A stretch of DNA of 64,000 nt from Candidatus Zixiibacteriota bacterium (GTDB lineage Bacteria; Zixibacteria; MSB-5A5; GN15; JACZUZ01): positions 69,537 through 133,536 of the forward strand of contig JAJRPJ010000018.1 in assembly GCA_024280835.1 (NCBI GenBank), read 5' to 3'. Under the pieces are notes generated by a model. The model did not search any database. It was not told where the DNA came from and saw only the letters and a list, made by a program, of their open reading frames with translations. Both the position numbers and the translations under genes were made by a program. Shown piece by piece: positions 34,775 to 59,721 of the stretch (positions are counted from its first letter, which is position 1; each line of letters opens with the position of its first letter).

Positions 34775-37700
34775 TTAAGGGCTGGGGAAACTCCCATTAG
34801 CGGCGGCATTCGCCTGATATGGTTTTCCTGGCGTGACTGGGAAGTTAGTTCCGAATCCAGCTGAGAAACGCGACTGATAGCTCTGCGAGCCAGCCACGAA
34901 ATTATTCACTGTATTGAGCGTTCCAGGGACATTATTGATAATGTCCTGAGCTACAGAGAAGTCCACTTGACGCTCAAATGGTATCATCAGGAAGTTGAAA
35001 TCGTTGGTCGCCGTCGTAATTATCGGATAGCTAACCGCGCCAGGAGCAGGAATCGCCCCAGCTATACTAAAGACAGTATTCACCGATGCATTTACCTGAT
35101 ATATACCGCCAACGCTTACTGCAAAATTCACTCCAAAACCAGCGGCAAAGCGAGATTCAAAGCTTTGCGAGGCCGCCACAAAATTGTTCAAAGTCAGCAC
35201 ATTGCTTGAACCGATGGCCGAAATTAGCTGGTCGGCGGTGGTGATACCTGTATTGGCAAATGGTATGGCAATCAAATTGAAGTTCGTAGTCGAAGTCACT
35301 ACTATTTGATAGTCAAATTCGCCAACACGATTTGAGAGCGCCGAACGTCTACCAAAACCATCAACAGCTTCAATCACATAGAAGTACTGAACTAATGTGT
35401 CACCGATGACATTACCCCCGCCGATATTGTTGTCTGTAAAGGTAATCGTGGCTGTTCCTGTAAAGCCAATCGAATCCAAAGCAGTCGGAGTGAAATAGGC
35501 GCTTGTGCCACGATAGATTACATAATGATCTACAGTTGTCGCCAAACCGCCTGTATCGAGCGTGATTGGTGACCAATCTAGTTGCATAGCATCCAAAGCA
35601 ATCAACGCGCTCAAATCAGCAACAGCTAATGGCGGCGCGGCATTGCCAGCCTCAACAACTGTGATACTCACAACTTCGCTGTCAACAGCTAGCGAATCAT
35701 CTGTAGCAAAGAAGGTCACCGAATAGATTCCAGCTTGCGTGAAATCAGGAGTCCAAGTCAATGAGCCAGTCCCGTTGAGATTGTCGGTGAAGACTGCTCC
35801 GATTGGAAGCGCAGTGGTCGTTAGAATCGGTGTCGACTCTTGATCAGTTGCCGAAACGGGGAAGTTCAAAGTAACATTTTCACTAACAGACTGAGAACCA
35901 ATGAAGGCCAATATCGGTAATTGATTGCCCACTTCCACAACAGTGATAGTAACAGTCTCACCGCTTGCCGCCAGTGAATCATCGGTGGCGAAGAAGTTGA
36001 TATTGTAAATTCCTGCTTGCGTAAATGTTGGCGTCCAGTTGAATGTCCCTGTGCCATCACCATTGTCATTGAATGTGGCGCCAGATGGTAGCGCCGAAGT
36101 TGTCAGGGCTGGGATTGATTCTGCGTCACTGGCGCTGACTATGAAACTCAGCAATGTATTCTCTGGTATTGATTGCGCTCCAATAGCAACCAAGACAGGC
36201 GACTGATTGCCAGCTTCAATAACTGTGATTGTGACAATTTCACTATCAACAGCAGTCGAGGCGTCAGTGGCAAAGAAAGTGACATTATAGACACCAGACT
36301 GTAAGAATGTCGGTGTCCAAGAAAGAGCTCCTGTTCCATCGGCATTATCGACGAATGTTGCTCCAGTCGGCAGAGCCGAAGTAGACAATGTTGGGGTTGA
36401 TTCTGCGTCCGTTGCGCTAATGGCAACATTCAAAGCATTATTCTCAAGAATTGATTGAGCGCCTATCGTCACTAACACTGGTAGTTGGTTGCCAGATTCG
36501 GTAACCGTGATTACAACAACTTCACTGTCAACGGCCAGAACTGCATCAGTGGCAAAGAAAGTCACAGAATAAATACCCGCTTGAGTGAATGTCGGTGTCC
36601 AACTAAAGGCGGCTGTACCATCGGCGTTATCTACGAACGTTGCTCCCAATGGCAATGCGCTAGAAGTCAACACTGGGATTGTTTCGGCGTCGGTGGCGCT
36701 GAGAGCCAAATTCAAAGCGACATTTTCAGAAACCGTTTGTGCGCCAATAGCCGCCAAAACTGGTAATTGGTTGCCCACTTCTGTAACAGTGATTGTAACA
36801 ATCTCACTGTCTACAGCTAGGGAAACATCGGTAGCATAGAAGGTTACTGAATAAACTCCTGATTGAGTAAAGGTTGGAGTCCAGTTGAAAGCTCCTGTGC
36901 CGTCGCCATTGTCAATGAAGCTTGCGCCAGTTGGCAGGGCAGTAGTAGTCAGCGTTGGAATTGATTCAGCGTCAGTTGCCGAAAGAGCAAAACCAAGAGC
37001 GACATTCTCAGCAACTGTTTGCGCGCCAATTGCAGCGAGAACCGGCAATTGGTTACCAGCTTCGATAACAGTGATTGCAACTACTTCAGAATCTGTCAGA
37101 ACACCATCAGATGCGCCAAAGGTCACTGAATAGACACCAGCTTGCACGAATGTAGGATTCCAGCTGAATGCACCTGTGCCATCACCATTGTCAATGAAAC
37201 TTGCTCCAGCGGGAAGAGCGCTGGTTGTCAGAGGTGGAATTGTGCCGTCCGCATCAGTAACGCTGACCACAAAATTCAAGGCCGCGCCTTCAGTTACGGA
37301 TTTCGCACCGATAAGCGCTATGACTGGCGCTTGGTTGCCAGCTTCACTGACACTAATAGTAACTATTTCACTGTCTGAGACGATTCCATCCGAGGCAAAG
37401 AATGTTACAACATAAGTTCCACTCTGCGTGAAATTCGGAGTCCAATCAAGGCCACCAGTTCCATCACCGTTGTCGGTGAAAGTTGCTCCTAGAGGAACAT
37501 TGGTAGCCGACAAAGTCGGGATTGTCGCATCAGCATCAGTGGCAGAAATCCCAAAGTTCAGATTCGCGCCCTCACTAACACCCTTAGGACCGATAGCCGC
37601 CAGAACAGGAGCTTGGTTGCCAGCCGAGTTGACAGTGATAGAAACTACTTCGCTGTCGATTAGTAATCCATCTGAGACAAAGAACGTAACTGAGTAAACT

Positions 37701-46700: not shown

Positions 46701-49700
46701 GAATCATCTGTGGCGATGAATATCACCAAGTAACTTCCACTTTGTGTGAATGTCGGTGTCCAATCGAATGTGGCAGTGCCGTTGCCATTGTCGATAAAAG
46801 CAGCTCCCGTCGGCGCGTTTGAAACGCTGAGCGCTGGAACGGGACCGTCTAAATTCGTAGCCGTTAGCGGCAAATTCAAATTGATACCCTCAGTAACACT
46901 TTGCGGTCCAATAATCGCCAAAACTGGTAGCTGATTTCCCGCATCGACAACTGTGATTGAAACTATTTCGCTGTCGTTCAATAAACCATCGGAAGTAAAG
47001 AAGGTCACATTGTATACACCAGACTGAATGAAGTTCGGTGTCCAATTCAGTGAACCAGTACCGTTAAGATTGTCTGTATAAGTAGCGCCAGTTGGCAATC
47101 CAGTGGCGCTAAGCGTCGGAATCGTCGCATCAGGGTCTATTGCAGAAGTTGCGAATGACAGCGCTGCACCTTCAGTCACACTCTGTGAACCAATTGCAGT
47201 CAAGACAGGGGCTTGATTACCTGCTTCGGTAATTGTGATGGTGACGACTTCGCTATCGATGACTGTGCCGTCGCTTGCAGAGAAAGTAACTATATAGGCG
47301 CCTGCTTGTACGAATGTCGGTGACCAATCAAATGTTCCACTACCATCGGCATTGTCGATAAAGGTTGCTCCCGCAGGTAAAGGGGAGGCACTGACACTTG
47401 GAATTGTACCGTCTGGGTCGGTAGAGTTTATATTGAAATTCAGATTCAAACCCTCGGCCACTCCTTGTGCGCCAATAGCGCTCAAAACTGGCGACTGATT
47501 GCCAGCTTCAAGAACAGTGATTTCGACGATTTCTGAATCGGCCAGCACACCATCGGTGGATATGAACGTCACATTGAAAATTCCCGCCTGATTGAAAGCT
47601 GGCGTCCATGAGAATGATCCCGTGCCGTTCGTGTTATCTGTATAGCTGGCGCCAACTGGAAGGTTTGTTGCATTCAGTGTTGGGATTGTTCCATCTGGGT
47701 CGCTGGCTGATGTCGCAAAAGCCAAGACCGCTCCTTCAGATACAGACTTGATACCAATTGCAGCCTGAACTGGCGCCTGATTCCCTGATTCAAAAACATT
47801 GATACTTACGATTTCAGAATCCGTAGCCAGACCATCACCAGCAAAGAAAGTCACACTATAAGAGCCAGCTTGAGTAAAATCTGGTGTCCAACTGAATGAA
47901 CCAGTCCCATCAGCATTATCAATATATGTAGCGCCGCTTGGTAGCGCAGAGGTCGTCATAACTGCGATCGTAGAATCCGAATCGGTGGCCGCTGTCGCAA
48001 AGGAGAGGTTCACACCTTCTGTAACTGACTGACCGCCAATAAGCGACAGCGCTGGAGTATGATTGCCAAACTCAGTAACTGTAATAGAGACAATCTCTGA
48101 ATCTAATCCACCGGAACCATCTGCTGCAAAGAACGTGACTGAAAAAGCGCCAGACTGGTTGAATAGTGGCGTCCATGAGAAACTACCCGTTCCATCACCA
48201 TTATCAGTGAAACTTGCTACGCTCGGCAATGCGTTAGTTGTCAACACTGGTATTGGTCCATCTGCATCTGCCGCAGAAACGATAAATGCCAGATTGCTTC
48301 CCTCGACAATCGCTTGCGGGCCAATGGCCGTCAGAATTGGCGCTTGATTAACATTGGTAACGGTTATAGCAACTATCTCAGAATCAGTAGCGGCGCCATC
48401 AGTTGCAAAGAAAGTCACATTATAAAGGCCAGCTTGAGTAAAGTCTGGTGTCCAACTGAATGATCCTGTGCCATTCAAATTATCCGTGTAACTAGAACCA
48501 AGTGGCAATCCTGTTGCGCTCAATGTCGGTGTGGTGCCATCGGCATCACTTGCAGTTGTTCCAAATGATAGAAGCACATTCTCATTGACGGCTTGTGCGC
48601 CGATAGCCGCTTGTACTGGAGCTTGATTAACATTGGTAACGGTTATAGCAACTATCTCAGAATCAGTAGCGGCGCCATCAGTTGCAAAGAACGTCACATT
48701 ATAAAGTCCAGCTTGAGTGAAGTCTGGCGTCCAGCTGAATGAACCCGTGCCATTCAGATTATCTGTGTAACTAGAACCAAGTGGCAATCCTGTTGCGCTT
48801 AGTGTCGGTGTGGTGCCATCGGCATCACTAGCGGTTGTTCCAAAGGATAGAAGTACATTCTCATTAACTGCTTGTGCGCCAATCAAAGCCAATACCGGAG
48901 CTTGATTAACATTCGTAACTGTAATAGCAACAATCTCAGAATCGGTAGCGGCGCCATCACTAGCGAAGAAGGTCACATTGAAGATTCCAGCTTGAGTAAA
49001 GTCTGGCGTCCAGCTGAATGAACCAGTGCCATTCAGATTATCTGTATAACTAGAACCAAGTGGTAATCCTGTTGCGCTCAATGTCGGTGTGGTGCCATCG
49101 GCATCACTGGCGGTTGTTCCGAATGCTAGAAGTACATTCTCATTGACTGCCTGTGGGCCGATAGCCGCTTGTACTGGAGCTTGATTCACATTGGTAACTG
49201 TAATAGCTACCACTTCAGAATCAGTAGCGGCGCCATCAGTTGCAAAGAAAGTCACATTGAACACACCAGCTTGAGTAAAGTCTGGTGTCCAACTGAATGA
49301 TCCTGTGCCATTCAAATTATCCGTGTAACTAGAACCAAGTGGTAATCCTGTTGCGCTCAATGTCGGTGTGGTGCCATCGGCATCACTGGCTGTTGTGCCA
49401 AAGGATAATAGTACGTTTTCATTGACTGCCTGTGGGCCGATAGCCGCTTGTACTGGAGCTTGATTCACATTGGTAACTGTAATAGCTACCACTTCAGAAT
49501 CAGTAGCGGCGCCATCAGTTGCAAAGAAAGTCACATTGAAGATTCCAGCTTGAGTGAAGTCTGGTGTCCAGCTGAATGATCCTGTGCCATTCAGATTATC
49601 TGTATAACTAGAACCAAGTGGCAATCCTGTTGCGCTTAGAGTCGGTGTTGTGCCATCGGCATCACTAGCTGTTGTGACAAAGGATAATAGTACGTTTTCA

Positions 49701-50377
49701 TTGACTGCCTGTGGGCCGATAGCCGCTTGTACTGGAGCTTGATTCACATTGGTAACTGTAATAGCTACCACTTCAGAATCTGTAGCGGCGCCATCAGTTG
49801 CAAAGAAGGTCACATTGAACACACCAGCTTGAGTAAAGTCTGGTGTCCAACTGAATGATCCTGTGCCATTCAGATTATCTGTGTAACTAGAACCAAGCGG
49901 CAATCCTGTCGCGCTTAGAGTCGGTGTGGTTCCATCGGCATCACTAGCTGTTGTGCCAAAGGATAATAGTACGTTTTCGTTGACTGCTTGCGAACCAATC
50001 AAAGCCAAAATTGGAGCCTGATTGACATTGGTAACTGTAATAGCAACCACTTCACTATCGACAGCCAGCGAATCGTCAGTCGCGAAGAAAGTCACACTAT
50101 AAACACCTGATTGCAAGAACGTCGGTGTCCAAGACAACGAACCAGTGCCGTTAAGATTATCTGTAAAGACCGCCCCAGTCGGCAGGGCGGAAGTTGTCAG
50201 CGCTGGAATTGATTCGATATCACTAGCAGAGATTACAACCGAGAGCAGAACGTTCTCAGATGTAGCTTGTGCGCCAATCGGACTTAGCACGGGCAAATTG
50301 TTCGCCTGCGCTAAAGCCTTTGCCGAAATCAAACAAAACACCAGCCCTGTTAAAAGCGCTATTTTTTTGATAAACAT
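34775..50377 (-). CDS. Giant (5,200 aa) secreted protein: ~52 cadherin-like/He_PIG repeats + FN3-like domain + two unknown C-terminal modules. No dockerin and no T9SS CTD.
   Basis: One uninterrupted 15.6-kb ORF. Signal peptide MFIKKIALLTGLVFCLISAKALA. Repeat unit as in the 2139-aa protein. C-terminal tail (289 aa) LDWSPITLD...HYVIYRG...YFYVIEAVDGFGRRS (FN3-like) followed by duplicated modules. Confidence 0.9.
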   Translation of the reverse strand: MFIKKIALLTGLVFCLISAKALAQANNLPVLSPIGAQATSENVLLSVVISASDIESIPALTTSALPTGAVFTDNLNGTGSLSWTPTFLQSGVYSVTFFATDDSLAVDSEVVAITVTNVNQAPILALIGSQAVNENVLLSFGTTASDADGTTPTLSATGLPLGSSYTDNLNGTGSFSWTPDFTQAGVFNVTFFATDGAATDSEVVAITVTNVNQAPVQAAIGPQAVNENVLLSFVTTASDADGTTPTLSATGLPLGSSYTDNLNGTGSFSWTPDFTQAGIFNVTFFATDGAATDSEVVAITVTNVNQAPVQAAIGPQAVNENVLLSFGTTASDADGTTPTLSATGLPLGSSYTDNLNGTGSFSWTPDFTQAGVFNVTFFATDGAATDSEVVAITVTNVNQAPVQAAIGPQAVNENVLLAFGTTASDADGTTPTLSATGLPLGSSYTDNLNGTGSFSWTPDFTQAGIFNVTFFASDGAATDSEIVAITVTNVNQAPVLALIGAQAVNENVLLSFGTTASDADGTTPTLSATGLPLGSSYTDNLNGTGSFSWTPDFTQAGLYNVTFFATDGAATDSEIVAITVTNVNQAPVQAAIGAQAVNENVLLSFGTTASDADGTTPTLSATGLPLGSSYTDNLNGTGSFSWTPDFTQAGLYNVTFFATDGAATDSEIVAITVTNVNQAPILTAIGPQAIVEGSNLAFIVSAADADGPIPVLTTNALPSVASFTDNGDGTGSFSWTPLFNQSGAFSVTFFAADGSGGLDSEIVSITVTEFGNHTPALSLIGGQSVTEGVNLSFATAATDSDSTIAVMTTSALPSGATYIDNADGTGSFSWTPDFTQAGSYSVTFFAGDGLATDSEIVSINVFESGNQAPVQAAIGIKSVSEGAVLAFATSASDPDGTIPTLNATNLPVGASYTDNTNGTGSFSWTPAFNQAGIFNVTFISTDGVLADSEIVEITVLEAGNQSPVLSAIGAQGVAEGLNLNFNINSTDPDGTIPSVSASPLPAGATFIDNADGSGTFDWSPTFVQAGAYIVTFSASDGTVIDSEVVTITITEAGNQAPVLTAIGSQSVTEGAALSFATSAIDPDATIPTLSATGLPTGATYTDNLNGTGSLNWTPNFIQSGVYNVTFFTSDGLLNDSEIVSITVVDAGNQLPVLAIIGPQSVTEGINLNLPLTATNLDGPVPALSVSNAPTGAAFIDNGNGTATFDWTPTFTQSGSYLVIFIATDDSLTADSETVSITVNEAGNQAPILSAIGAQSVIEGALLSVSINAADPDLTIPALSVTGLPLGASFTDNTDGTGTLSWTPSFVQAGAYNVTFFANDGALSDSEIVTITVNDAGNQLPVLAVIGAQAGAEGLQLLVNVSASDLDQTTPALSVSTLPSGAAFTDNLDGTGTLDWTPGFVQSGVFNITFFAADGFATDSEIVTVTIVDAGNQLPVLASIGAQIVTENINLTFGTSATDIEGASPTMSATGIPAGASYLDNANGTGTFSWIPDFTQSGNYTVTFFATDDSLAVDSEVVTITVTDAGNQTPVLAAIGAQSILEGTLLSFSIAASDLDATIPTFSALPLPTGASFVDNLDGTGTFSWTPDLTQSGVVNLTFSATDGIATDSEVVAITVIEAGNQLPILASIGAQTVAEGINLNVPVTATDPEGGLPALTTTALPSGATFVDNGNGTGVFDWTPSFVQTGIYSVTFFSTDDSLAVDSEVVTITVTESGNQAPVLAAIGPQSGSEGALLTFATSASDPDGGFPALTASSLPAGATFTDNANGTGTFNWTPTFAQSGTYNVTFFASDGFANDSEIVAITINSAGNQAPVLAAIGAQSVTENVVLAFTVTGNDPDLTTPNLSATSLPAGATFVDNLDGTASFSWTPSFVQAGVYSVTFFASDGVLNDSEVVLITVTEAGNQIPLLATIGSRSTTEGVNLNFSSSATDPDGTIPLLSALSLPTGASYTDNSDGTGVFDWTPDFTQSGTFLIIFVASDGTVSDSETVSITVLEAGNQRPVQLAIGAKSALEGATMSFVVTSSDADGTFPAMTTTPLPIGAVYTDTGDGTAAFNWTPSFTQSGTYSVTFFSSDGLLNDSEIVSITINEAGNQPPVLATIGSQSVSEGVLLSVAISATDPDNINPALSIVGLPAGATFVDNGNGTGSFDWTPTFVQGGSYNVTFRASDGAIVDSEIIIITVTESGNQSPVLAVIGSQNVNEGIALSFVTSATDPDATTPTLTTGPLPTGAIYIDNGDGTAAFDWTPSFTQNGIYNITFFANDGLLSDSEIVTITVNEVGNQSPLLATIGSQFTTEGVLLSLVVTASDPDATIPGLSVTSLPIGATFADNFDGTGTLSWTPGFTQAGVYSVTFKASDGILLDSEIVSITVIEVGNQAPVLSAIGAQSTTEGLSLAFGVGATDPDGTTPVLTTSALPSGAIFADNGNGTGSFSWNPDFAQGGTYNIVFRASDGVITDSETVVITVLEAGNQPPVLATIGARGVLEGANLNFGISASDPDVTIPTLSVTSLPTGATFIDNLDGTGVFDWSPTFVQSGTYFVTFIATDGLSSDSEIVTVSVNESGNQAPILVSIGSKATLEGVNLNFATAASDPDATTPTLTASGLPIGASYIDNANGTGVFDWTPDFTQSGTYAITFFASDGALVDSEVVTISINEAGNQSPIMVAIGAQSVTEGASLAFGINASDPDGTTPVLTSTVLPGGASFVDNGNGTGTLSWSPDFTQSGSYTVTFFASDGILKDSQIVAITVLESGNQTPVLAAIGARSTNEGALLNFGLSASDPDGTTPSFTSSALPLGATLIDNGDGTATFDWTPDFTQSGAYSITFFAGDGLISDSEIVSVVVNEAGNQPPVLAAIGAQSITEGALLSVSITAIDADATIPGLSAVGLPLGAAFVDNLDGTASLTWTPLFTQAGVYSVTIRATDGLVTDSEIVSITVIDAGNQIPVLAAVGPQGTNEGILLSFAVSALDPDSTIPALSIAPIPTGATFTDNGDGTGAFNWTPDFTQSGSYSVTVFASDGVTLDSEIVLITVNELGNQAPILATIGAQSVTEGVALGFAVSASDVDLTIPALSTSLLPLGASFTDNLDGTGSFSWSPTFVQSGSFAVTFFASDGALIDSEIVTITVTEAGNQLPILAGIGAQSITEGLALAIAVSASDTDGIAPTLTTIGLPLGATFTDNLDGTGSLSWTPDFTQAGTFNITFFATDDSLAVDSEIVTVTVFDAGNQNPVLALIGPQSIVEGANLTFGASATDPDGTIPALTATGVPAGASFTDNLNGTASLNWTPTFTQSGSYSMTVFASDGVAIDSEVVSVTVNEAGNQPPVLAAIGSQSANEGVTLSFGISSSDLDGTIPTLSGLPLPSGATFTDNLDGTGTFSWTPDFTQAGIYLVTFAANDGVVVDSEVVSITINSAGNQVPILALIGPQNSNEGVNLNFALSATDADATIPALAAVGLPTGASLTDNLNGTATFDWTPDFTQAGSYIVVFTASDGVAIDSEVVTITINDAGNQAPVLTLIGSQNVTEGATLAFSINAADADGTIPSLNTTTLPLGATFVDNGDGTGAFNWTPDFTQAGGFSVTFRASDGVAIDSEVVTITVLEAGNQAPTLAAIGPRTTNEGVALAVAVSASDPDGSIPALTTSALPSGATFTDNTNGTGAFDWTPDFTQAGIYVVTFFASDGLVIDSEQVTITVNSAGNQAPVLAAIGAQTTTEGILLSFGASATDADGTIPALTTSALPLGATFTDNLDGTGSFSWAPDFTQAGLYSIVFRASDGIVNDSEIVSISVGDAGNQAPVLASIGPRSITENNLLSFIISTSDPDATIPALTANSLPSGATFIDNGDGTGTFSWTPDFTQAGVYSVTFVASDGILDDVEIVNITVLESGNQSPVLAAIGAQAIAENALLSFTVNSSDPDGTFPALTSSALPIGAVYTDNNNGTASFAWTPDFTQAGIYSVTFFASDGVLVDSEVVQITVAESGNQAPVLAAIGSQSSTEGLNLTFGVSATDPDATIPALSVGTLPIGAAFVDNADGTGTFNWTPNFTQSGVYSITFFASDGVALDSEIVTVSISESGNQIPVLATIGPRTTTENISLAFGLSALDADGTIPFFGATGLPLGAILTDNGNGTANFAWIPNFTQNGVYFVIFTASDGVAIDSETVSITVNEAGNQIPVLSAIGAQSVNEGANLNFAITAVDPDATIPTLTTSTLPTGATFVDNGTGSGTFDWSPSFVQAGVYSVTFFVSDGLLIDSEVVSITVNSAGNQAPVLAAIGPKGVSEGANLNFGISATDADATIPTLSATNVPLGATFTDNGDGTGGLDWTPNFTQSGTYVVTFFASDGIVSDSEIVTISVSEAGNQAPVIALIGAKSVTEGAALNFVVSVTDADGTIPPLTTSALPAGASFIDNGDGTGAFSWNPTFVQAGVYSVTFGASDGVLTDSEVVAITVIEAGNQLPVLAAIGAQTVAENVALGFALSATDAESIPTLTTTALPTGASFIDNGDGTGAFNWTPTFTQSGVYSVTFYATDVSLAVDSEIVTITVTEVGNQLPVLAAIGAQTVSENVALNLALSATDAETIPVLTSSALPLGATFVDNADGTAAFSWTPTFTQAGIYSVTFFATDAVLAVDSEVVVITVTESGNQLPVLVTIGAQSILENNALNVAISATDAESTPTLSTSALPTGATFVDNADGTGALSWTPTFLQSGVYNVTFFATDASTAVDSEIVTITVIEAGNQSPVLVAIGAQSIPENTLLSFIVSASDAESIPALTTSALPSGATFNDNGDGTGTFNWTPTFTQAGIYNINFFATDDSLAASGETVTITVVEVGNQLPILAFIGSQSVSENVTLNFPVSATDQESTPILTTTALPIGAVFTDNLNGTGSLTWTPDFTQAGIYSVTFFATDDSLAVDSEVVSITVVEAGNAAPPLAVADLSALIALDAMQLDWSPITLDTGGLATTVDHYVIYRGTSAYFTPTALDSIGFTGTATITFTDNNIGGGNVIGDTLVQYFYVIEAVDGFGRRSALSNRVGEFDYQIVVTSTTNFNLIAIPFANTGITTADQLISAIGSSNVLTLNNFVAASQSFESRFAAGFGVNFAVSVGGIYQVNASVNTVFSIAGAIPAPGAVSYPIITTATNDFNFLMIPFERQVDFSVAQDIINNVPGTLNTVNNFVAGSQSYQSRFSAGFGTNFPVTPGKPYQANAAANGSFPSP
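35645..50302 (-). repeat. Array of ~52 tandem 91-97-aa cadherin-like/He_PIG coding repeats (aa 26-4911)
   Basis: Periodicity was read from the protein. The count is estimated from length (4,886 aa at about 94 aa per unit). Confidence 0.85.
48356..50029 (-). repeat. Six near-identical 279-bp (93-aa) tandem copies at the 5' end of the giant gene (repeats 2-7)
   Basis: The unit NVNQAPVQAAIGPQAVNENVLLSFGTTASDADGTTPTLSATGLPLGSSYTDNLNGTGSFSWTPDFTQAG(V/I/L)(F/Y)NVTFFATDGAATDSE(V/I)VAITVT occurs six times. 49142-49260 is letter-identical to 49421-49539, and the first 81 nt recur at 49700. Confidence 0.95.
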
Positions 50378-50417: not shown

Positions 50418-53129
50418 CTACTTCAGCAGAATCATTTTCTTTGTATCACGTTTCGTAGCGCCGACCATTAGTCGATATAGATAAATGCCTGTCGCCACTG
50501 AACTACCATTTGAATCACGTCCGTTCCACTCCACTGTATATTCACCTGGAGCCTTAGGACTTTCAACTAAGGTATTAACCCTTTGGCCAAGAATATTGAA
50601 AATATCCAAACGTACGTCCTGAACCTTACCACCATCTGCATCAACACCAATCGAATACGAAATTGTGGTGGTGGGATTAAATGGATTCGGATAGTTTTGT
50701 TTCAAAGCGAACGTTTCCGGCAAAACAACTTCCGCCAGCGCTTCTGTTTCAATTCTAGCGCCATTCGGGCTCGCGAGCGTAACATTGCTCAGCGTAATAT
50801 CGTCTTCAACGGAATTCGCTGACATCAAAGCCGGAATCCGCAGTATCTCAGATAGACCTTGTGGAATCAGAGTCTCTGTGTTCCAAGGCGAACTATTGTA
50901 AATCACCACTCGCATTGTTCCTGCACGGTCATTGTTATAGCGCAAACGGTACTTACTAGATATGTCGGTCAATTCTGGCGGTAGTACAGAGACTGTGGAA
51001 GGATTATAGTCGATATGGAACTCTATTCCAGCGACATCCTCTGGGAAATCTCCGAACATTGAAACATTGCTCCATTCGCCAGTCTTAATATCAGCTGGGT
51101 CTAATTCAACACTAGCCAACTGCCCACCTGAAACTGGGGCTGGTCCTGGGATAATCGGTAATCCAAAAATGAGATTGTTGATACCGACAAGATCGATAAC
51201 ATCGACTGTATCGTTCAATGATACATCGGCTGTGGCGAACTGACGCGCTGGCAAACCGAAGTTTCCTATGATATAGGCCACGACATTAACAAGATCAGCA
51301 ACATCAACAAGCTTATCGAGGTTTACATCACCGAAACGATCGACATCAATAATTCCTGGAAGCGTCAGCAATTGCACAGAACCAATTGCAGGATTTGGAT
51401 CAATTGACTCTCTACCATTCAGAAGAATCATATCGTAAGTTCCTGGCAAAGCTGTCGAATCAATGCGTAGCACAATTTGCAGAACCGCAGAACTAGCATC
51501 AGGTATGATCGCTTCATTATTGAGACCAAGTGTCACAACACGAATCAAACTGTCATTCATCGCCAACCAATCGACAATGAAGGTTCCTGTTCTGGTGGTT
51601 GTGATAATTGAATCTATTTCGATTTGACGATGTGGATACATCAAGTCAAACTGCACACCAAAAACGCTGTCTTTCAAACTGATCAAATCAATCGGAAACA
51701 AAACTGGATTGAATCCTGGAATTCCACCTGCTGGTGACATTTCTCTCACCGAAGTGGTAAAGAGCTGATCAAACTCAAGCTTTTCGACTGTGATAGTAAC
51801 CGAAACAGTATTAGAAGCATTGCCACCAGGATTATCAGTCGCGTTAAAAGAGACTACAAACGAACCAGATTGATTCAAAGTCGGCGTCCAACTAAACGAC
51901 CCACTAGCGGCAGCCGCGCTGGGAGTTGAATTGAAAGTGGCCCCTGATGGCAGATTCGACGCTGTGATAGTGATAACATGTGAAGCGGTGTCGTCAGTTC
52001 CATTAACGCTAAACGACACCAGCTCACCTTGCTTGACTGTAATTACACTAGGTGTAACTTGAGAAATAACAGGCCCATGCCCAGCAGTCTGTATTGCTGT
52101 ATAAGTACAATTCCCATTTCCGTCACAAACTCCAGGGAGTTTGAAACCAGTTGGAGGAGAAGTACACTGAGTTGATGATGTACAAGTCGGGATGGCTGTA
52201 TAAACACATTTGTTACCCACACATGCCACCGTAAAACCACTAATTGGCGCACAATTGCTAGCTCCTGTACACTCTACATTATCAAGCAGCGTATCTATCT
52301 TGAAAAATCCACTCGCCAATACTGGCACCTGCGAAAGAGACAAAACCTCTTGCGTGGTATCAAATGTAACCACCCAGTTTTGAGCGGTAGCAACCAGAGC
52401 GCAAGAAAGTTGAACAGGAGGAAACACTGTTGTATCTATTACTGGTAAATGAAGCAATGTCACTGGGCTGAGTGTCCCGACTGGTAAGTTCGTAGGTCTG
52501 ACCACAAACTTGACGCGCGCGATTTCACTGTTTCCGCCAAGAATAGAATCCAGAGCAACTGTTTCACCAGCAATTTTCGAGAGCCATTGAATCTTCAGAA
52601 TACTACTATCACGAACCTTTACCGAATTTGAACGAAACAAATCAATCGTATCAATGACTTGGAAACCGTTAACAAAGATGGTTCGAGTCAAAGCTCCACG
52701 ACCCGTTTCACGAATATCCAACCTGTCGACTATGACCGTGTCAACTGTGGTATCTGGTGGGATGACAGTATTATTTATGCTAGTGTCAATTACGGTATCT
52801 GAAAAAAGAAGCGGAATCAGTAAAGTTGAGTCATACCGAACATTCGCAGTCAGCCCCAAGAATGTAGAATCAGCCTTCAAGAATAGCGGCATCTCAACAG
52901 TGTCACCTGGCATACCTTGAAAACTAAGAATTCGCATCGTATCTGGCACGAAGGTGTTATAATTGACGCCTTCGACACATTCGAATATCTGCGCATTCGA
53001 CACTCGCGGCATAAATAGGGCAAGTAGGATTACTAATAGGGGTAACAGCGTTTGTCGCAGTCTCATTTTATACCTCAAAGTATCAGTCATGGTGTCTTCG
53101 TATTTATTGTTTCCGTTGATGACAGTCAT
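50418..53129 (-). CDS. Scaffoldin-like protein: cohesin-like 1, Cys-rich linker, He_PIG, cohesin-like 2, dockerin, cohesin-like 3, T9SS CTD (probable start ATG 53066)
   Basis: Signal peptide MRLRQTLLPLLVILLALFMPRVSNA. Cohesin-like motifs GMPGDTVEMPLFLKADSTFLGLTANVRYDSTLL, VLFPIDLISLKDSVFGVQFDLMYPHRQIEI and FPEDVAGIEFHIDYNPSTVSV. Dockerin GDVNLDKLVDVADLVNVVAYIIG...ADVSLNDTVDVIDLVGINNLIFG. CTD FALKQNYPNPFNPTTTISY...GIYLYRLMVGATKRDTKKMILLK-stop. Confidence 0.85.
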   Translation of the reverse strand: MTVINGNNKYEDTMTDTLRYKMRLRQTLLPLLVILLALFMPRVSNAQIFECVEGVNYNTFVPDTMRILSFQGMPGDTVEMPLFLKADSTFLGLTANVRYDSTLLIPLLFSDTVIDTSINNTVIPPDTTVDTVIVDRLDIRETGRGALTRTIFVNGFQVIDTIDLFRSNSVKVRDSSILKIQWLSKIAGETVALDSILGGNSEIARVKFVVRPTNLPVGTLSPVTLLHLPVIDTTVFPPVQLSCALVATAQNWVVTFDTTQEVLSLSQVPVLASGFFKIDTLLDNVECTGASNCAPISGFTVACVGNKCVYTAIPTCTSSTQCTSPPTGFKLPGVCDGNGNCTYTAIQTAGHGPVISQVTPSVITVKQGELVSFSVNGTDDTASHVITITASNLPSGATFNSTPSAAAASGSFSWTPTLNQSGSFVVSFNATDNPGGNASNTVSVTITVEKLEFDQLFTTSVREMSPAGGIPGFNPVLFPIDLISLKDSVFGVQFDLMYPHRQIEIDSIITTTRTGTFIVDWLAMNDSLIRVVTLGLNNEAIIPDASSAVLQIVLRIDSTALPGTYDMILLNGRESIDPNPAIGSVQLLTLPGIIDVDRFGDVNLDKLVDVADLVNVVAYIIGNFGLPARQFATADVSLNDTVDVIDLVGINNLIFGLPIIPGPAPVSGGQLASVELDPADIKTGEWSNVSMFGDFPEDVAGIEFHIDYNPSTVSVLPPELTDISSKYRLRYNNDRAGTMRVVIYNSSPWNTETLIPQGLSEILRIPALMSANSVEDDITLSNVTLASPNGARIETEALAEVVLPETFALKQNYPNPFNPTTTISYSIGVDADGGKVQDVRLDIFNILGQRVNTLVESPKAPGEYTVEWNGRDSNGSSVATGIYLYRLMVGATKRDTKKMILLK

Positions 53130-53177
53130 CAGTTTAACGGCTTACGTATTTGAGTGTCAATCTTCATCATATTCATA

Positions 53178-55280
53178 TTACTTCAAAAGCGTCATTTTTC
53201 TTGATTGTGCATATCCGTTGGCAGTCAAACGATAAAAGTACATTCCGCTAGCAACTGTCGAACCCTGTTCATCAGCTCCATCCCAGCGTGCGACATAGTC
53301 GCCAGACTCAAATGTTCCTTGAGCCAATGTCCGGACAGTTCTACCGAGGATATCATAAATGACCAATTTGACATTGGCCTGATTCGACAACGAATAACGT
53401 ATCTCAGTTGTCGGGTTAAACGGATTAGGATAGTTTTGCTCAAGCTCAAATGCTGTTGGCAAAACCACTGAGCCAGACTTCACCAAATTCGCTTGAAGGG
53501 TAGCGCCTTGTGCGCTCGCTAACTCTACAGCGACAAGCTCTAGCTTTTCAAAATCAACGCTGCTATTCGTCGAAACGAACAGAGCCTCGGAAAGACTCGC
53601 CGAGTTTTCATTTGAAGATCGATCGTAAGTAACGCTCTTATAGATCAAGGCCCTAAGAGTATCACCACTCTGATGTAATTTGACCTCATAACCATTCGGC
53701 AGACCGCCTTCATCAAACTTCAGTGACCGAAGAACACCATCAGCTTGAGCGACAAACGTCAACAATGCGCCGCCAACAGTGGTAGCGCTCGTTTCATACT
53801 CATTATTAGAGCTGAAACGGACAACGGCTTGATTTTCTTGACGTTCAAAAAGCACATTAATTTCGGTTGAGTATCCAGGTGCAATTCTTGGATTTGCAGC
53901 GCCATCGCCAAGAACTATCGAGAGCAATGTCACAAGATCAGCAATGGATGCCACAATACCGTCAGAGTTGACATCCGAATTGGCAAATTGCTCCGCGTTG
54001 AATCCAGACCTCACTGGATCAATAAAGTAATTTGTGAATCGAAGAGCATCGGCGACCTCAAAAGGCACGCCATTGAGATTGATGTCGCCACGTGTAATAT
54101 CTGACTGATTGACTATTTTAACACCACCGCTAGTGAACACTATGGAGTCTGAGACAATTACGCTGCCCGCCGTATCTATTAGTGTATTTGAGGCTGGTGG
54201 AGCAAAAGGACCAAAGCCAAAAATTACTGGCAGAAATAGACCCGCCAAATTGTTTTCAGAAGACACAAAGAAATTGATGGTGAATAAAATCCCGTCGCCT
54301 GGAGGGATAACTCCCGCTCCATTTGGACTTGATGTATTTGCGATGCCTACAACTTTCAAATCACCAGGGGACGGAGATCCCAACTGAAAGGTTAGTGACT
54401 CGAAATCTGAGGTCCTGGCAGTCTCATTGAAAATAGATATGAATGCCATCACACTTGGGTCATAATGCAATTCAAACTCGAACCCAGAAATCGACTTACG
54501 GTTTGTTAGTAAAACTGGGATTGAAACGACTTCACCTGGAAACGCTGTGTCAACTGCAATAGTAACCGAAAACGGAGCCCCAATCGAAACTACTACTGTA
54601 GCGCTAGCGCTAACAGAAAGCCCCCACTGGTCTGTGGCCGTTAGCACAATTGTATTCGAACCACTATCTGCTTGCTCTGGCGCCCACTTCAAATCTGCTG
54701 GGGCAGGACCGTCTGCGTTGCGCAACAAAAGTCCAGTTGGAGCTGCAGCCATTGACCACGTTATCTTGTCTTGATCAGGATCAAAAACTGTCGGCTGGAT
54801 GTTCACTGTATCCCCAACCTCGACAAAAACAGAATCAACTAATGTAATAATTGGAGCGCGGTTCCTGTTTTGAACGTGGACTACCAGAGCTTCTGAACTT
54901 TGCGATGTTCCGTCGGAGGCGACAAACATCACCGTAAAAGGTGAACCAGCTGAAGAAAGAGGCCCAAGATATTCGGAGGTCCATGAGAAATTCGCTGTGC
55001 CATCACCGTTATCGCTAAAGATCGAACCAATCGGACGCTCAATAGTTGCTAATGACAGAGGATCGCCATCGGCGTCCGCAACACGGACAGTCACTGAGAC
55101 TGTCTGGCCTTCGCTGAGATATACATCCCCCAACGGTTCAATTACTGGCGGACTGGCAGCGCTTACCTGATTTGTAACTAGTAACGAACCCACAGACAAG
55201 AATACCAAAACAACCGCAAGCATAGCCGCAAACCTAGTCAGCCCAGAAAACTTCATCTCACAGATATGAGATGAGGTCAA
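53178..55280 (-). CDS. Scaffoldin-like protein: 2 He_PIG repeats, cohesin, dockerin, X module, T9SS CTD (probable start ATG 55256)
   Basis: Signal peptide MKFSGLTRFAAMLAVVLVFLSVGSLLVTNQVSA. Cohesin FSVTIAVDTAFPGEVVSIPVLLTNRKSISGFEFELHYDPSVMAFISI...GDGILFTINFFV...FTSGGVKIV. Dockerin GDINLNGVPFEVADALRFTNYFI...SDVNSDGIVASIADLVTLLSIVLG. CTD FELEQNYPNPFNPTTEIRY...GMYFYRLTANGYAQSRKMTLLK-stop. Confidence 0.85.
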   Translation of the reverse strand: MTSSHICEMKFSGLTRFAAMLAVVLVFLSVGSLLVTNQVSAASPPVIEPLGDVYLSEGQTVSVTVRVADADGDPLSLATIERPIGSIFSDNGDGTANFSWTSEYLGPLSSAGSPFTVMFVASDGTSQSSEALVVHVQNRNRAPIITLVDSVFVEVGDTVNIQPTVFDPDQDKITWSMAAAPTGLLLRNADGPAPADLKWAPEQADSGSNTIVLTATDQWGLSVSASATVVVSIGAPFSVTIAVDTAFPGEVVSIPVLLTNRKSISGFEFELHYDPSVMAFISIFNETARTSDFESLTFQLGSPSPGDLKVVGIANTSSPNGAGVIPPGDGILFTINFFVSSENNLAGLFLPVIFGFGPFAPPASNTLIDTAGSVIVSDSIVFTSGGVKIVNQSDITRGDINLNGVPFEVADALRFTNYFIDPVRSGFNAEQFANSDVNSDGIVASIADLVTLLSIVLGDGAANPRIAPGYSTEINVLFERQENQAVVRFSSNNEYETSATTVGGALLTFVAQADGVLRSLKFDEGGLPNGYEVKLHQSGDTLRALIYKSVTYDRSSNENSASLSEALFVSTNSSVDFEKLELVAVELASAQGATLQANLVKSGSVVLPTAFELEQNYPNPFNPTTEIRYSLSNQANVKLVIYDILGRTVRTLAQGTFESGDYVARWDGADEQGSTVASGMYFYRLTANGYAQSRKMTLLK

Positions 55281-56390
55281 TCCAGTCAGCTGTCCAGTTG
55301 GACGCAGATTGTTTGATTTGTTCGATAGGAGTTGTTCGATTCGAGTTTTCAGCGCAATCGCTCTTTTCTATTCTTTCGTTACTACTCTTGCTTTGTAAGC
55401 AGTAGCTGCGTAATCAATAACATTGTAATCACTTGGCGATAACTATCAGGGTCAGTGCAGCTTCGCCAGCTTCTATTCTCTTTGCTATAATCTCTATTTT
55501 GGACTCCTGCCAGAGAGAACCTTCGTACGACAAACGCTCTGGTTAGCAATAATCAAATCCAGAGCGACTTACGGCAAATCCTCCAATTCCGTTTGAGCAA
55601 TAAGCAGACCAATCTGCCATACTATCGAAGGTGGAAGAGTATCCTGTTCAATTGTCGCACAACCATTTCGGATCATGGGTAGGTTCAAAACCCGAAATAC
55701 GATTATAAACGGAAAATCCTTGTCCAATAATCGCTTAAGTCAGAAAAACGGCCTTTCCCACTGATAAACGATGGCCGATAATGGCCAAACAACAGGTTGA
55801 AGCTCGTTTCCTCGTTAGCTGAGTCCTTCTGACGACATTAGGTATACGTGAGGCGGTAAGGTATGAAACGCAAGTAATACAGATTATTACACTGTCATAC
55901 GCAAGACACGCAAACAATTGCGCGTTTAGCTAACGTCTATGCTGCATTGCTTTACTCCATTTGCAATCTTCGACGTTGCTTCGGCGCCTAAACTTCCAGT
56001 CTCGGTTACGATACACATCAATATCACCCTCAGGTGGTGGCCTATTCCCTACTTATTGTGACACTAGAACCAGGATTCCTGATAGGATCTTGCTGACGGA
56101 TGTGCGAGGGAAATCGTATCCAACTGACCTGCGAATAATATACTACTTATCCACATTTTCGTCAAAGGTTTTCGCGCCTCTTTCAGGACTAAATTGACTC
56201 ATTTATCCATTTGACACTGTAGGTCTTAACTATATTTCACCAACCTCTTTTTCACAGACAATGTCAGTCGACATTTGTCAATAAACCAGCAGGTTCGCTC
56301 TTAGCTATTTCTTAGCTATTAAGGAGTTAATCTTCAGATGGGGGAAAACGACGGTAAGGCAGTGATACTATGAATCATCGTGAGACGCTT

Positions 56391-56434
56391 AAAATAAAAG
56401 TCCCAACCGAGGGAGGAAATCCTCCCTCGGACGG
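56391..56434 (-). terminator. Rho-independent terminator after the 893-aa gene
   Basis: On the minus strand: TCCCGTCCGAGGGAGG-ATTT-CCTCCCTCGGTTGGGA (10-bp perfect core plus outer pairs) followed by CTTTTATTTT, 20 nt after the stop at 56454. Confidence 0.75.
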
Positions 56435-56453
56435 GAAATAAAGCAAGAAATGA

Positions 56454-59135
56454 CTATTTTACAAGAGCCAATTTCCGTGTTGCTGTGTACTTGCCACCAG
56501 CAGCAGAAACCTTATAGAAATAGATTCCTGTTGACTGACTAGCAAGATCAACATCAATACTTACCAAACCGGCTTCATGCTCACCAGTGATATCACGTAC
56601 GAGCTGACCAGCGACGTTATAAATACGAACTGAGTATTTAGCGGCTTCTGGGAGATCGAAAGTGATCTTGGTGTTAGGATTGAATGGGTTCGGGTAATTC
56701 TGGTAAACGGCAAAACTGGTAGGAATGACGACGTCGAGACCAGGTGACAAAGCGACACCATTGTAGTCTGCGGCTTCGACAGAAACCAATGTACCTTCGG
56801 AAGAGACGACATTACCAGCGGCAATGACTTCTGAACCAACGTTGAATACCAGTGCGTGGGTGTTGCCATCGACAACACCAACTTCGATGTCCATATTGGT
56901 GGCAAGAAGAGTTACATCAACTTCACCCTCAAATACGAACAACGCAGCGCCCATCTCAACGCTTGAAGAAACAACACCACTCTTAGAAGTGATGGAGATA
57001 GCTTCGGCGTTATGAGCGAGTTTCGGTAAAGGAAGAGCATCACCGACGATGACACGGATCAAATACACCAAGTCAGCGACAGTTAACGGAATTCCATCAC
57101 CATTAACTTCAGATGCGGCAATCGAACCCTCAATGTGGGTACCGAAAGCTGAGAGACCAGAAACAAAATAGTTGGTCAACATTGTCGCATCCGCGATCTC
57201 GTTTGAGAGACCGTTCAAGTTGATATCACCGCGTGCATCAATTTCTTCCGCACAGATAATTCTGATACCACCGTTTTTGTAATCAACAAAACGGATCGGA
57301 GCGCCTTTAGGCGTAGCAACATCACAATCATCCGGTGCGCCTGTGAAGGTCGGGAATGACTGATCAGCGCCAGTGATATTCGAACGGAAACCACTGACGA
57401 CGTTATTCATGTCTGTACCGATGTAGTCAAAGACGTTACGGCTGACATAAAGGGTGTCACCACCAGATGACGACAGTGAGTTATCACCGCAGTCAATCCA
57501 GCACCAGCGAATCGCTGCAAACTGACATTCGAGATTACGATCGTTTGAGACCAAGAATGTCAAACAAGCAAAGTCATCACCAACGACCAACAAATTGTTG
57601 TTCGGGTGAGCCATGCCATCATTCTGCTCAGCAAGACCGATTACACGAAGCTTACCTGAAGGACAACCACCTGTGCAGTTACCATTCGGGCCGAAGCGAT
57701 AGGTAAAGTACTCCCACGCGTAATCCGCGAAAATATTACCTTCCGTCGCGCCAACAAATGAAAGCGCGCTGTTATCATAAGAAATCAAGAAATCAAAACC
57801 ACCAAGTTCATTCGAACCGCCGTCATAGTTAAGGCAAACCTCAACCTGATGGCCCTGCAAAGAACCACCCAATGGGTCGGTCTTGTCAGTCTGGTCAATG
57901 CTGACACAGAAAGGCTCGGTGAACAATACAGTGATTGTCATGGTGCACTCGACTGTTTCAATACCATCTGTAACTGAGAGGGTAATGTCATAGTCAGTAT
58001 CAGCGCCAGCAGCGTCGGAATTGTCAGCAGCAAATGTGACAGCGCCTGTTGTAGGATCAACAGACACGGTACCAACTGGAACTGGTGCAACACTTACGAG
58101 TGAGTAAACCAAAGCATCACAAGCGTCAGCATCGGAACCGTTAGCGGCCGGAGAAGTACCAGAGTTGCCTTTGGCAACTGCGATATTCGGTGGGCAAACG
58201 AGAGCCGGAGTGCTATTTGTGACTTCAACATTAACAACACAGTCAGCGTTCGGGCCATCTGGCTCGGCGCCATTGACTGTAATTGTGATAGAACCATTCT
58301 CACCAGCGCCTGGAACGTATGAAACGTTACCAGAACCGTCAACAGAAACAGTACCTGTACCGGTAGTTGTCGCTGAATAGGTAATTGGCTGATTTTCTGG
58401 ATCTGGATCGGTGAGCGTAATCGAGAAATTCAAAGCATCACAATGATTGGTGCTTTCTGATGTTGTATTGCCAGCATCACAAACCGGATCTTGATCCGGA
58501 ATTACAAAAGCAGTGACACAAAGAGCGTTGTCGCGTGAACCGCCAACACTAAGATCACCACCACCACCTGACCAGCCAGTTGCGGCGGCAGGTGACATCA
58601 ACCACTCACCACTTGGTGGGAAGAAAGCGGAGTCAATACAAAGAATACCGCCGTCAATACCAGGAAGAGTGAATGAGAATTTAAGACCATCGGATAAGGC
58701 AATTGGGCCATAACCGGTTCCAGCCGCTCCAGAGGATACACCACCGGAGAGCCATGTGCTTGGCAATGAGCCACTGAAAGCATCAGCGCCCAATGTCAAT
58801 TTAGCGCCACCAAAATCCCATGTGGCATTGTTACCCCAGACACCAACGCCTATAGCAGGCGGTGTTACCCATGTGATGTTAGTAAGTGAGCCATCTGGGC
58901 TATAGATAATAAAGCCCATCGTGGCGCCAGTTACATTAACATCAGACTCAAACTGCACTGTGTACTCATAGGTACTGGCATGTCCGACTTGGAAATCAAG
59001 TCCGTTTCCAGATATATCTGGGAAAGTTGGCCCGTTTGTTATTGACACCGCAGCGCCAGTCTGAGCCAAAGCATTTGACCCAAGAGCAAATAACATACAA
59101 GAAGCCAATACAAGAGTAAGTAATTTACGACTCAT
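56454..59135 (-). CDS. Scaffoldin-like protein: N-terminal domain, Ig/cadherin-like modules, cohesin-like, dockerin, X module, T9SS CTD
   Basis: AGGAG SD. Signal peptide MSRKLLTLVLASCMLFALGSNALA. Cohesin-like HQVEVCLNYDGGSNELGGFDFLISYDNSALSFVGATEG...FVDYKNGGIRII. Dockerin GDINLNGLSNEIADATMLTNYFVSG...SEVNGDGIPLTVADLVYLIRVIVG. CTD FAVYQNYPNPFNPNTKITF...GIYFYKVSAAGGKYTATRKLALVK-stop. Confidence 0.85.
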   Translation of the reverse strand: MSRKLLTLVLASCMLFALGSNALAQTGAAVSITNGPTFPDISGNGLDFQVGHASTYEYTVQFESDVNVTGATMGFIIYSPDGSLTNITWVTPPAIGVGVWGNNATWDFGGAKLTLGADAFSGSLPSTWLSGGVSSGAAGTGYGPIALSDGLKFSFTLPGIDGGILCIDSAFFPPSGEWLMSPAAATGWSGGGGDLSVGGSRDNALCVTAFVIPDQDPVCDAGNTTSESTNHCDALNFSITLTDPDPENQPITYSATTTGTGTVSVDGSGNVSYVPGAGENGSITITVNGAEPDGPNADCVVNVEVTNSTPALVCPPNIAVAKGNSGTSPAANGSDADACDALVYSLVSVAPVPVGTVSVDPTTGAVTFAADNSDAAGADTDYDITLSVTDGIETVECTMTITVLFTEPFCVSIDQTDKTDPLGGSLQGHQVEVCLNYDGGSNELGGFDFLISYDNSALSFVGATEGNIFADYAWEYFTYRFGPNGNCTGGCPSGKLRVIGLAEQNDGMAHPNNNLLVVGDDFACLTFLVSNDRNLECQFAAIRWCWIDCGDNSLSSSGGDTLYVSRNVFDYIGTDMNNVVSGFRSNITGADQSFPTFTGAPDDCDVATPKGAPIRFVDYKNGGIRIICAEEIDARGDINLNGLSNEIADATMLTNYFVSGLSAFGTHIEGSIAASEVNGDGIPLTVADLVYLIRVIVGDALPLPKLAHNAEAISITSKSGVVSSSVEMGAALFVFEGEVDVTLLATNMDIEVGVVDGNTHALVFNVGSEVIAAGNVVSSEGTLVSVEAADYNGVALSPGLDVVIPTSFAVYQNYPNPFNPNTKITFDLPEAAKYSVRIYNVAGQLVRDITGEHEAGLVSIDVDLASQSTGIYFYKVSAAGGKYTATRKLALVK

Positions 59136-59721
59136 CTCGTACTCCTACTTTTAAGTGTATGGATTATTTGACTATTTGATTTCATTCGCAAGAATGCACG
59201 CATGCATACTGACGAATCAGCCATGTATGAGAAGACAGTGAGAGCCACAAACCGCCCTTGCCCAACATGATTGGTGATTTCAAATTGTCGCATAATCATT
59301 ATTAAGTTTCTCTTGAGTGCGTATTACAGTTCACAAATAAATCAAAAGATATAATCTCATGTTTTATTTGCAATTGTTTGTCTTCTGCAGATTTGTAAGA
59401 AATCTTTCAGAAGGAAATCTCGTGTTTGATAATACAGAGAGCCACCGATTATCAAACAGTAAGACAAAACCTACCTCTTCTTAAGCGTTTCCTCCTCTTT
59501 TTTCAAACGTGTTAGCGATTGAATGTCGGAAATGAAGCGAGAGGAAAACTCCCTGCAGTTGAATAGAAGACATACTATCCATGGAAAACATCCCACAAAT
59601 AGAAGCCATATTCTTCCGCTGACGTACACCCCGACGTTTCTTATTCATTTTTCTTTTTCTTTTCGCTTAAATCGTAATGCTTAACTATCACTTTGTTGTT
59701 TGCTTTTAGACAGTCACCAAG

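Follow-up and report, generated by a model that had tools for sequence, protein, structure and literature searches.

How did six closely similar repeats come to stand in a row within a protein whose other repeats have drifted far apart? The question is raised by a giant gene in a 64,000-nucleotide (nt) stretch of DNA from a Candidatus Zixiibacteriota bacterium (contig JAJRPJ010000018.1, positions 69,537 to 133,536; hereafter the window). The gene, an open reading frame (ORF) uninterrupted over 15.6 kb, encodes 5,200 amino acids (aa) laid out as a signal peptide, 52 tandem He_PIG / tandem-95 immunoglobulin (Ig)-like domains of 93-95 aa and a C-terminal module of 286 aa. When domain boundaries are set by anchoring on the conserved W-x-P motif, the block in question consists of domains R02-R07 (48338-50011), six in-frame units of exactly 93 aa or 279 nt each, all within the intact ORF. 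An earlier reading of the sequence, the original prediction, had placed the block at 48356-50029, which are the same six units with the phase shifted by 18 nt, and had ascribed it to recent unequal crossing-over or ongoing gene conversion. We consider it likely that the units are six paralogous copies of one cadherin-like Ig stalk subtype, which would have been made and intermittently re-homogenised by exchange between tandem units while selection held the protein sequence.

Divergence among the six units

The description of the block as six near-identical 279-bp copies is apt for the protein, where identity among R02-R07 is 91.4-97.8% (mean 94.6%), but not for the DNA, where it is 81.7-94.6% (mean 88.1%). 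In the block unit 65 of the 279 positions are variable, and these comprise 50 third, 10 first and 5 second codon positions. Nei-Gojobori estimates for pairs of block units range from 0.20 to 1.09 for synonymous divergence (dS) and from 0.012 to 0.051 for nonsynonymous divergence (dN), with a dN/dS of 0.04-0.11. R03 and R04, the closest pair, differ at 15 of 279 nt. The amino acid differences listed before (SFGTT/SFVTT, AGVF/AGIF/AGLY, ATDG/ASDG, SEVV/SEIV and the first ~10 aa) could each be confirmed, and LLSF/LLAF in R05 is to be added to them. The units also have a linker of their own, TNVNQAP, which is one residue shorter than the x-E-A-G-N-Q-x-P of most other domains.

The other ~46 repeats had been called clearly diverged, and indeed mean identity among these 46 domains is 59% (aa) and 60% (nt), and no pair exceeds 78% aa. 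The only large array that TRF reports in the window extends from 48338 to 50054 (period 279, 6.2 copies, 90% matches, 0% indels, score 2489), so that the last ~14 codons of R01 fall within the homogenised DNA as well. All of the gene's twelve longest exact repeats (44-122 nt) lie inside the block, and since the longest exact repeat elsewhere in the gene measures merely 27 nt, the block is far beyond what chance would give.

Divergence at four-fold degenerate sites is 9-41% in the block (mean 26%) and on average 65% among the other repeats, with 73% as the saturation value. Since the block thus stands at 0.26 against 0.65, its ancestry at silent sites is more recent than that of the rest of the array, and the similarity of the units is not due to protein constraint alone. 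On the other hand, the expansion is not recent, given a dS of 0.2-1.1 and a closest pair with 15 differences. The copies have been under ordinary purifying selection for a long time, and the ancestry they share is not recent. High protein identity among repeats is therefore not in itself a sign of recent expansion, and silent sites need to be checked.

Several other origins or structures were considered for the block. Foreign insertion was rejected, the GC content being uniform across the block at 46-49%. On the plus strand no ORF of at least 50 aa was found within the block, and a feature on the opposite strand was rejected for this reason. A higher-order repeat of 558 or 837 nt was likewise rejected, as the identity matrix has no regular pattern.

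Exchange tracts, related loci and assembly

The differences among the units are not evenly spread. Exact tracts of 64-122 nt run over unit boundaries (Table 1). The stretch 49142-49260 is, as already pointed out in the original prediction, exactly identical with 49421-49539, and the match extends to 122 nt in all; the first 81 nt of the stretch are found again, as stated there, exactly at 49700. In full, the first 83 nt of the 122-nt tract equal 49698-49780, and the same 83-nt sequence thus stands at the R02/R03, R03/R04 and R04/R05 junctions. Of the 561 pairs formed by 34 biallelic informative sites, 300 fail the four-gamete test. Permutation of the site order marks concordant runs as overlong for R03-R04 (p = 0.002) and R03-R07 (p = 0.002), while for R03-R05 and R04-R05 runs as long occurred in 0 of 5,000 permutations. 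The nearest copy also changes along the unit, from quarter to quarter: for R04 it is R03, R05, R02 and R03, for R05 it is R07, R04, R03 and R06. This mosaic reads as the footprint of patchy gene conversion or of out-of-register, unequal exchange among the units.

The same observations bear on a simpler history, a single old burst of duplication without later exchange, with the likeness of the units coming from strong purifying selection on the domain subtype. We regard this as unlikely. Differences left by such a burst should not be as uneven as they are between R03 and R04, where all 15 lie within the central ~140 nt and the identical flanks carry on past the unit boundaries. Nor does a burst agree with the significantly long concordant runs, with nearest neighbours that switch along the unit or with the non-adjacent R04 and R07, which share 173 nt with 2 mismatches; the copies fit no single tree.

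Related genomes give a second view of the block. The gene directly upstream of the giant gene served as a unique anchor for locating orthologous loci. A genome scan with it yielded one orthologous locus in the reference genomes, L001, from a Candidatus Zixiibacteriota metagenome-assembled genome, in which the flanking gene is 78% aa identical. The corresponding metagenome scan gave no orthologue, its matches being dominated by the generic tail pattern of the type IX secretion system (T9SS), and no relative turned up whose flanking gene exceeds 81% aa identity. Look-ups by exact sequence, for three proteins of the window and for the 100%-identical database entry P0121, gave no contig. Searched with its first 775 aa, the giant protein had no match above 63% identity, and most matches were partial. 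The giant gene of L001 has a signal peptide and R01, followed by at least 4 units of 93 aa before the contig stops inside the block. These units are mutually 91-95% aa and 83-90% nt identical (dS 0.4-0.9); compared with the window units they are 75-82% aa identical, with a dN of about 0.125 and saturated silent sites. The single-copy R01 is 86% aa identical to its L001 orthologue, again with saturated silent sites. By dN, the common ancestor of the window copies would lie at about 10-45% of the depth at which the L001 lineage split off.

Two more loci, L161 and L162, come from one ENA/NCBI assembly that has many frameshifts and is presumably long-read, and both span the whole array. L161 has the same synteny and N-terminus, with R01, 7 units of 279 nt (84-98% nt identity), 17 units of 282 nt (81-96%) and then diverged units. 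L162 carries a LamG-type N-terminal domain, 12 units of 279 nt (82-98%) and then about 24 units at 63-82%. The large homogenised blocks lie at 12509-17314 in L161 (17 units) and at 9249-12598 in L162 (12 units). Frameshifts of 1-2 nt divide each of these two giant genes among several called proteins; P0001, P0060 and P0098, for instance, all belong to a single gene. The unit type that follows R01 depends on the lineage: the domain in second place belongs to an R01-like 'D-x-E-S' subtype in L163-L165 and L167 and is not a 93-aa unit.

In the four genomes that have the 93-aa unit type, identity among units of one genome is 94-95% at the aa and 86-93% at the nt level, and units of different genomes share 61-88% aa and 60-74% nt identity, so that paralogous units resemble one another more than they resemble the corresponding units of a related genome. 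Their number differs between lineages, with 6 in the window, at least 4 in L001, 7 in L161 and 12 in L162. This pattern within and between genomes points to concerted evolution with changing copy number or, equivalently, to repeated lineage-specific expansion.

Several points weigh against exchange among the units as we read it. Homoplasy at silent sites, where dS reaches up to 1, inflates the four-gamete count, and a neighbour test like the pairwise homoplasy index (PHI) is merely marginal (p = 0.049). Independent lineage-specific expansions after the split would give the same pattern within and between genomes, and one truncated close orthologue does not separate them from concerted evolution. 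Finally, an assembler with k <123 may have mis-threaded the shared tracts, which would make the order of the mosaic partly artificial. Even with mis-threading, however, long exact tracts amid copies that are otherwise 10-18% diverged would persist.

We therefore propose, with the mechanism deduced from the pattern of likeness, that unequal crossing-over between tandem units would gain or lose units, and that short-tract gene conversion would patch units from others, non-adjacent ones included. Between exchanges the silent sites would drift while purifying selection holds the amino acid sequence (dN/dS about 0.05). The present state would then be a mosaic of intermediate age, with ~95% identity in the protein and ~88% in the DNA, in which the exact tracts of 64-122 nt mark the latest exchanges. 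Such tracts would suffice for RecA-type exchange, and copy number could hence still change, if more slowly than with truly identical repeats. With a DNA identity of 82-95%, exchange is rarer than in the classic identical-repeat proteins. A copy number that varies at present is plausible, and if it does vary in populations, this would point to length tuning of a Zixibacteria surface filament.

Could the assembly itself have produced the block, by collapse, expansion or mis-threading that left copy number or segment order wrong? For k = 55, 77, 99 and 119 the repeated k-mers of the window are confined to 48300-50100, which makes the block the sole place in the window where a short-read assembly may fail. 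The short-read contigs of six relatives (L001, L163-L167) stop 222-1,511 nt past the start codon of the giant gene, and most database homologues are partial proteins from 2-4 kb contigs; the repeat block accounts for this near-constant fragmentary state of the gene family in databases. The fragility foreseen in the original prediction is thus supported for the family, since within the window no k-mer of 55 nt or longer repeats outside the block and the contigs of six relatives end in the gene, yet the copies in the window can be resolved. Since every k-mer of at least 123 nt occurs just once in the window, reads of 150 nt or an assembly at k = 127/141 can tell the six copies apart. In addition, the reading frame is intact over the six units and the 15.6-kb gene, GC content is uniform, and in relatives with presumed long-read assemblies similar units do form genuine blocks of 7, 12 and 17. 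We therefore hold an artefact to be quite unlikely; the count of six copies is credible, though unverified.

A recent expansion by unequal crossing-over, which would have left six near-identical DNA copies and a present-day hot spot of copy number, can be judged in the same way. The exact 279-nt spacing without indels, the exact tracts of up to 122 nt, the protein identity of 91-98% and the breaks of relatives' contigs in the same region would all suit it. The DNA is only 82-95% identical, however, and with 15 differences in the closest pair, a dS of 0.2-1.1 and 50 of 65 variable sites in third codon positions such an expansion is improbable indeed. Of the earlier proposal of recent expansion or gene conversion, exchange among the copies stands (mosaics, concordant runs at p <= 0.002, homogenisation specific to each genome), while 'recent' has to be given up (dS 0.20-1.09). 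Hardly credible, finally, is selection for identical protein domains (e.g. for homotypic zippering or a uniform tip-proximal rod) combined with silent 'recoding' that suppresses recombination and stabilises copy number: ~95% protein with 86-88% DNA identity does recur in three lineages (window, L001, L162), but the silent differences are clustered and leave exact tracts of 64-122 nt, the opposite of minimised recombination substrates, the ratio of protein to DNA identity is as ordinary dN/dS of ~0.05 predicts, and DNA identity in L161 is 93%.

Likeness to known repeat proteins

Exchange between tandem units, as we favour it, has a close parallel in the Periscope Proteins (Whelan et al. 2021, PMC8201768; reviewed in PMC9704523), which include SasG, Rib/Alpha C and Sgo_0707. 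They are recognised operationally by repeats of >50 aa at >=80% identity (PMC8201768), and the block, with six 93-aa units at 91.4-97.8%, falls well inside this definition. Both are single-chain secreted rods of tandem globular domains in which a run of highly similar repeats stands beside far more diverged domains, and both break the rule that neighbouring domains usually share <50% identity. In either case intragenic homologous recombination has been put forward as the driver, and repeat number differs among related genomes. The two also differ. Classic members have near-identical DNA repeats, while the DNA of the block is 82-95% identical, its exact tracts of up to 122 nt still being recombination substrates. 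Classic members also have documented length variation at the level of strains, whereas here distant relatives alone are compared (6 vs at least 4, 7 and 12 units). Only 6 of 52 domains are homogenised in the window protein, which has no distinct tip domain and no recognised anchor, and the host is an uncultured Zixibacteria-like bacterium and not a host-associated pathogen.

The protein likewise resembles fibrillar adhesins and tandem-95 proteins, given its above-cut-off matches to NF012211, PF05345 and PF17963 and a model that comes closest to the SraP stem (4m00, 4m03). It differs from them in that no adhesive head domain is recognised here, whereas the relatives L162 and L166 carry a non-repeat domain at the N-terminus. 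With cadherin-like calcium-binding stalks it shares conserved acidic motifs (SxSDxDG, DNxDGTG, DGxxxDSE); calcium binding and adhesion are putative functions here. Concerted evolution of tandem arrays, for instance of ribosomal DNA or of genes for repeat-bearing surface proteins, offers the same likeness within a genome, mosaic tracts that cross boundaries and a copy number that depends on the lineage. A further likeness is that the first domain of the array, R01, and the last domains, which resemble R01, are not homogenised with the block. In contrast to such arrays, homogenisation is incomplete and old (dS 0.2-1.1), which suggests that the process is slow or episodic.

The block is thus best filed as a periscope-like, partially homogenised repeat block of a fibrillar adhesin-like stalk protein that evolves in concert, ordinary for such repeat proteins, and it raises no new question. 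It suggests for the giant stalk proteins of an uncultured phylum the mode of evolution seen in pathogen surface proteins, with tandem domains gained, lost and kept alike. A literature search on concerted evolution of adhesins together with their synonymous divergence found nothing useful.

Domain structure and gene neighbourhood

Assignment of the domains to the tandem-95 / He_PIG group rests on profile matches above the curated cut-offs together with a predicted extended tandem of Ig-like domains. The NCBIfam model NF012211 (tandem-95) scores 204.8 bits (cut-off 90) in 8 stretches within the first 775 aa, and Pfam gives PF05345 (He_PIG) at 139.6 bits (cut-off 24) and PF17963 (Big_9) at 124.7 bits. 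From an alignment of the 51 consecutive domain pairs, AlphaFold2 (AF2) predicts R03-R04 as two Ig-like sandwiches of seven strands each, joined end to end, with a predicted local distance difference test score (pLDDT) of 95.9. The best solved match of this model in Foldseek is to the pair of cadherin-like stem modules of the staphylococcal adhesin SraP (4m00; template modelling score (TM) 0.71, 26% identity), while a sequence search of the PDB with the repeat gave no match. Invariant acidic motifs of the repeats (D24, D45-N46-x-x-G49, D73, D78-S79-E80) suggest calcium-stiffened linkers by analogy, and the rod of 52 domains would function as a stalk.

The N-terminal MFIKKIALLTGLVFCLISAKALA is a probable Sec signal peptide, from which the window protein passes straight into R01. 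R01 is closer to the last five domains, R48-R52 (35636-37045; 66-71% aa), than to its neighbouring domains. R01 and R48-R52 have in common a 'D-x-E-S/T-x-P' loop that is one residue shorter, and both ends of the array are therefore of one subtype. In other loci a non-repeat N-terminal domain stands immediately before the homogenised 93-aa units, namely ~250 aa in L166 (5061-5800) and a Laminin_G_3 domain in L162 (7938-8800). The position of these domains suggests that the N-terminus is the distal end and that the block lies beside the tip. One could go further and see in the 93-aa 'NVNQ-linker' unit a dedicated tip-proximal zone of growth and homogenisation in giant Zixibacteria stalks, in which intragenic conversion would continue and maintain several uniform copies in every genome because identical domains are needed (e.g. 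for length tuning or homotypic zippering) and ~95% protein with ~87% DNA identity would be a steady state and not a stage of ageing duplicates; we find this doubtful.

Table 1. Positions in the window of the giant gene, its parts, the exchange tracts and the upstream gene
Feature	Position	Strand	Basis or remark
Giant gene, 5,200 aa	34775-50377	minus	ORF list and translation, domain parsing, profile matches
Putative Sec signal peptide MFIKKIALLTGLVFCLISAKALA	50309-50377	minus	read off the translation, sequence pattern alone
Domain R01, 94 aa, 'D-I-E-S-I-P' subtype	50012-50293	minus	domain parsing
Block unit R02, 93 aa	49733-50011	minus	
Block unit R03, 93 aa	49454-49732	minus	
Block unit R04, 93 aa	49175-49453	minus	
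Block unit R05, 93 aa	48896-49174	minus	
Block unit R06, 93 aa	48617-48895	minus	
Block unit R07, 93 aa	48338-48616	minus	
Diverged remainder of the array, R08-R52, 45 domains of 93-95 aa	35636-48337	minus	adjacent-domain identity 47-78% aa
Conserved C-terminal module, 286 aa: FN3-like domain and two ~85-aa alpha/beta repeats	34778-35635	minus	
Longest exact tract, 122 nt	49140-49261		equals 49419-49540; covers the R04/R05 and R03/R04 junctions
Exact tract, 103 nt	49399-49501		equals 49678-49780
Tract of 173 nt with 2 mismatches, non-adjacent R07 and R04	48378-48550 and 49215-49387		exact pieces of 44, 77 and 44 nt
Upstream neighbour, 903 aa, He_PIG domain and T9SS C-terminal sorting domain	50418-53129	minus	

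At the other end, the 286-aa C-terminal module has no Pfam match and no sequence match in the PDB. About 57 homologous protein clusters were found; most come from Zixibacteria, and most lie at the 3' end of an incomplete gene. AF2 predicts a compact module with high confidence (pLDDT 95.2, predicted template modelling score (pTM) 0.90); a match to the FN3 fold is limited to the first ~105 aa, and the two alpha/beta repeats have no Foldseek match in the PDB. The module may be an uncharacterised anchoring or docking end. Neither the last 381 nor the last 286 aa of the giant protein gave a match to a T9SS sorting domain (Por_Secre_tail or CHU_C), and the protein thus does not qualify as type IX cargo.

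Four neighbouring genes do have a T9SS C-terminal sorting domain. The giant gene lies in a cluster of secreted multi-Ig genes (20907-21797, 27228-34729 and 50418-60927, all on the minus strand) with T9SS tails, cohesin and dockerin, and a second large protein of this cluster, with 2,139 aa, carries a dockerin. The gene order with T9SS, cohesin and dockerin neighbours recurs in L001, L161, L162 and L163. A full-text literature search gave no paper that names Zixibacteria together with cohesin and dockerin. Elsewhere in the window, a 933-aa ORF (22402-25203, minus strand), which like the adjoining 239-aa ORF (25182-25901) is without a Pfam match, contains a 105-nt tandem repeat at 22426-22617 (1.8 copies, 80% matches).

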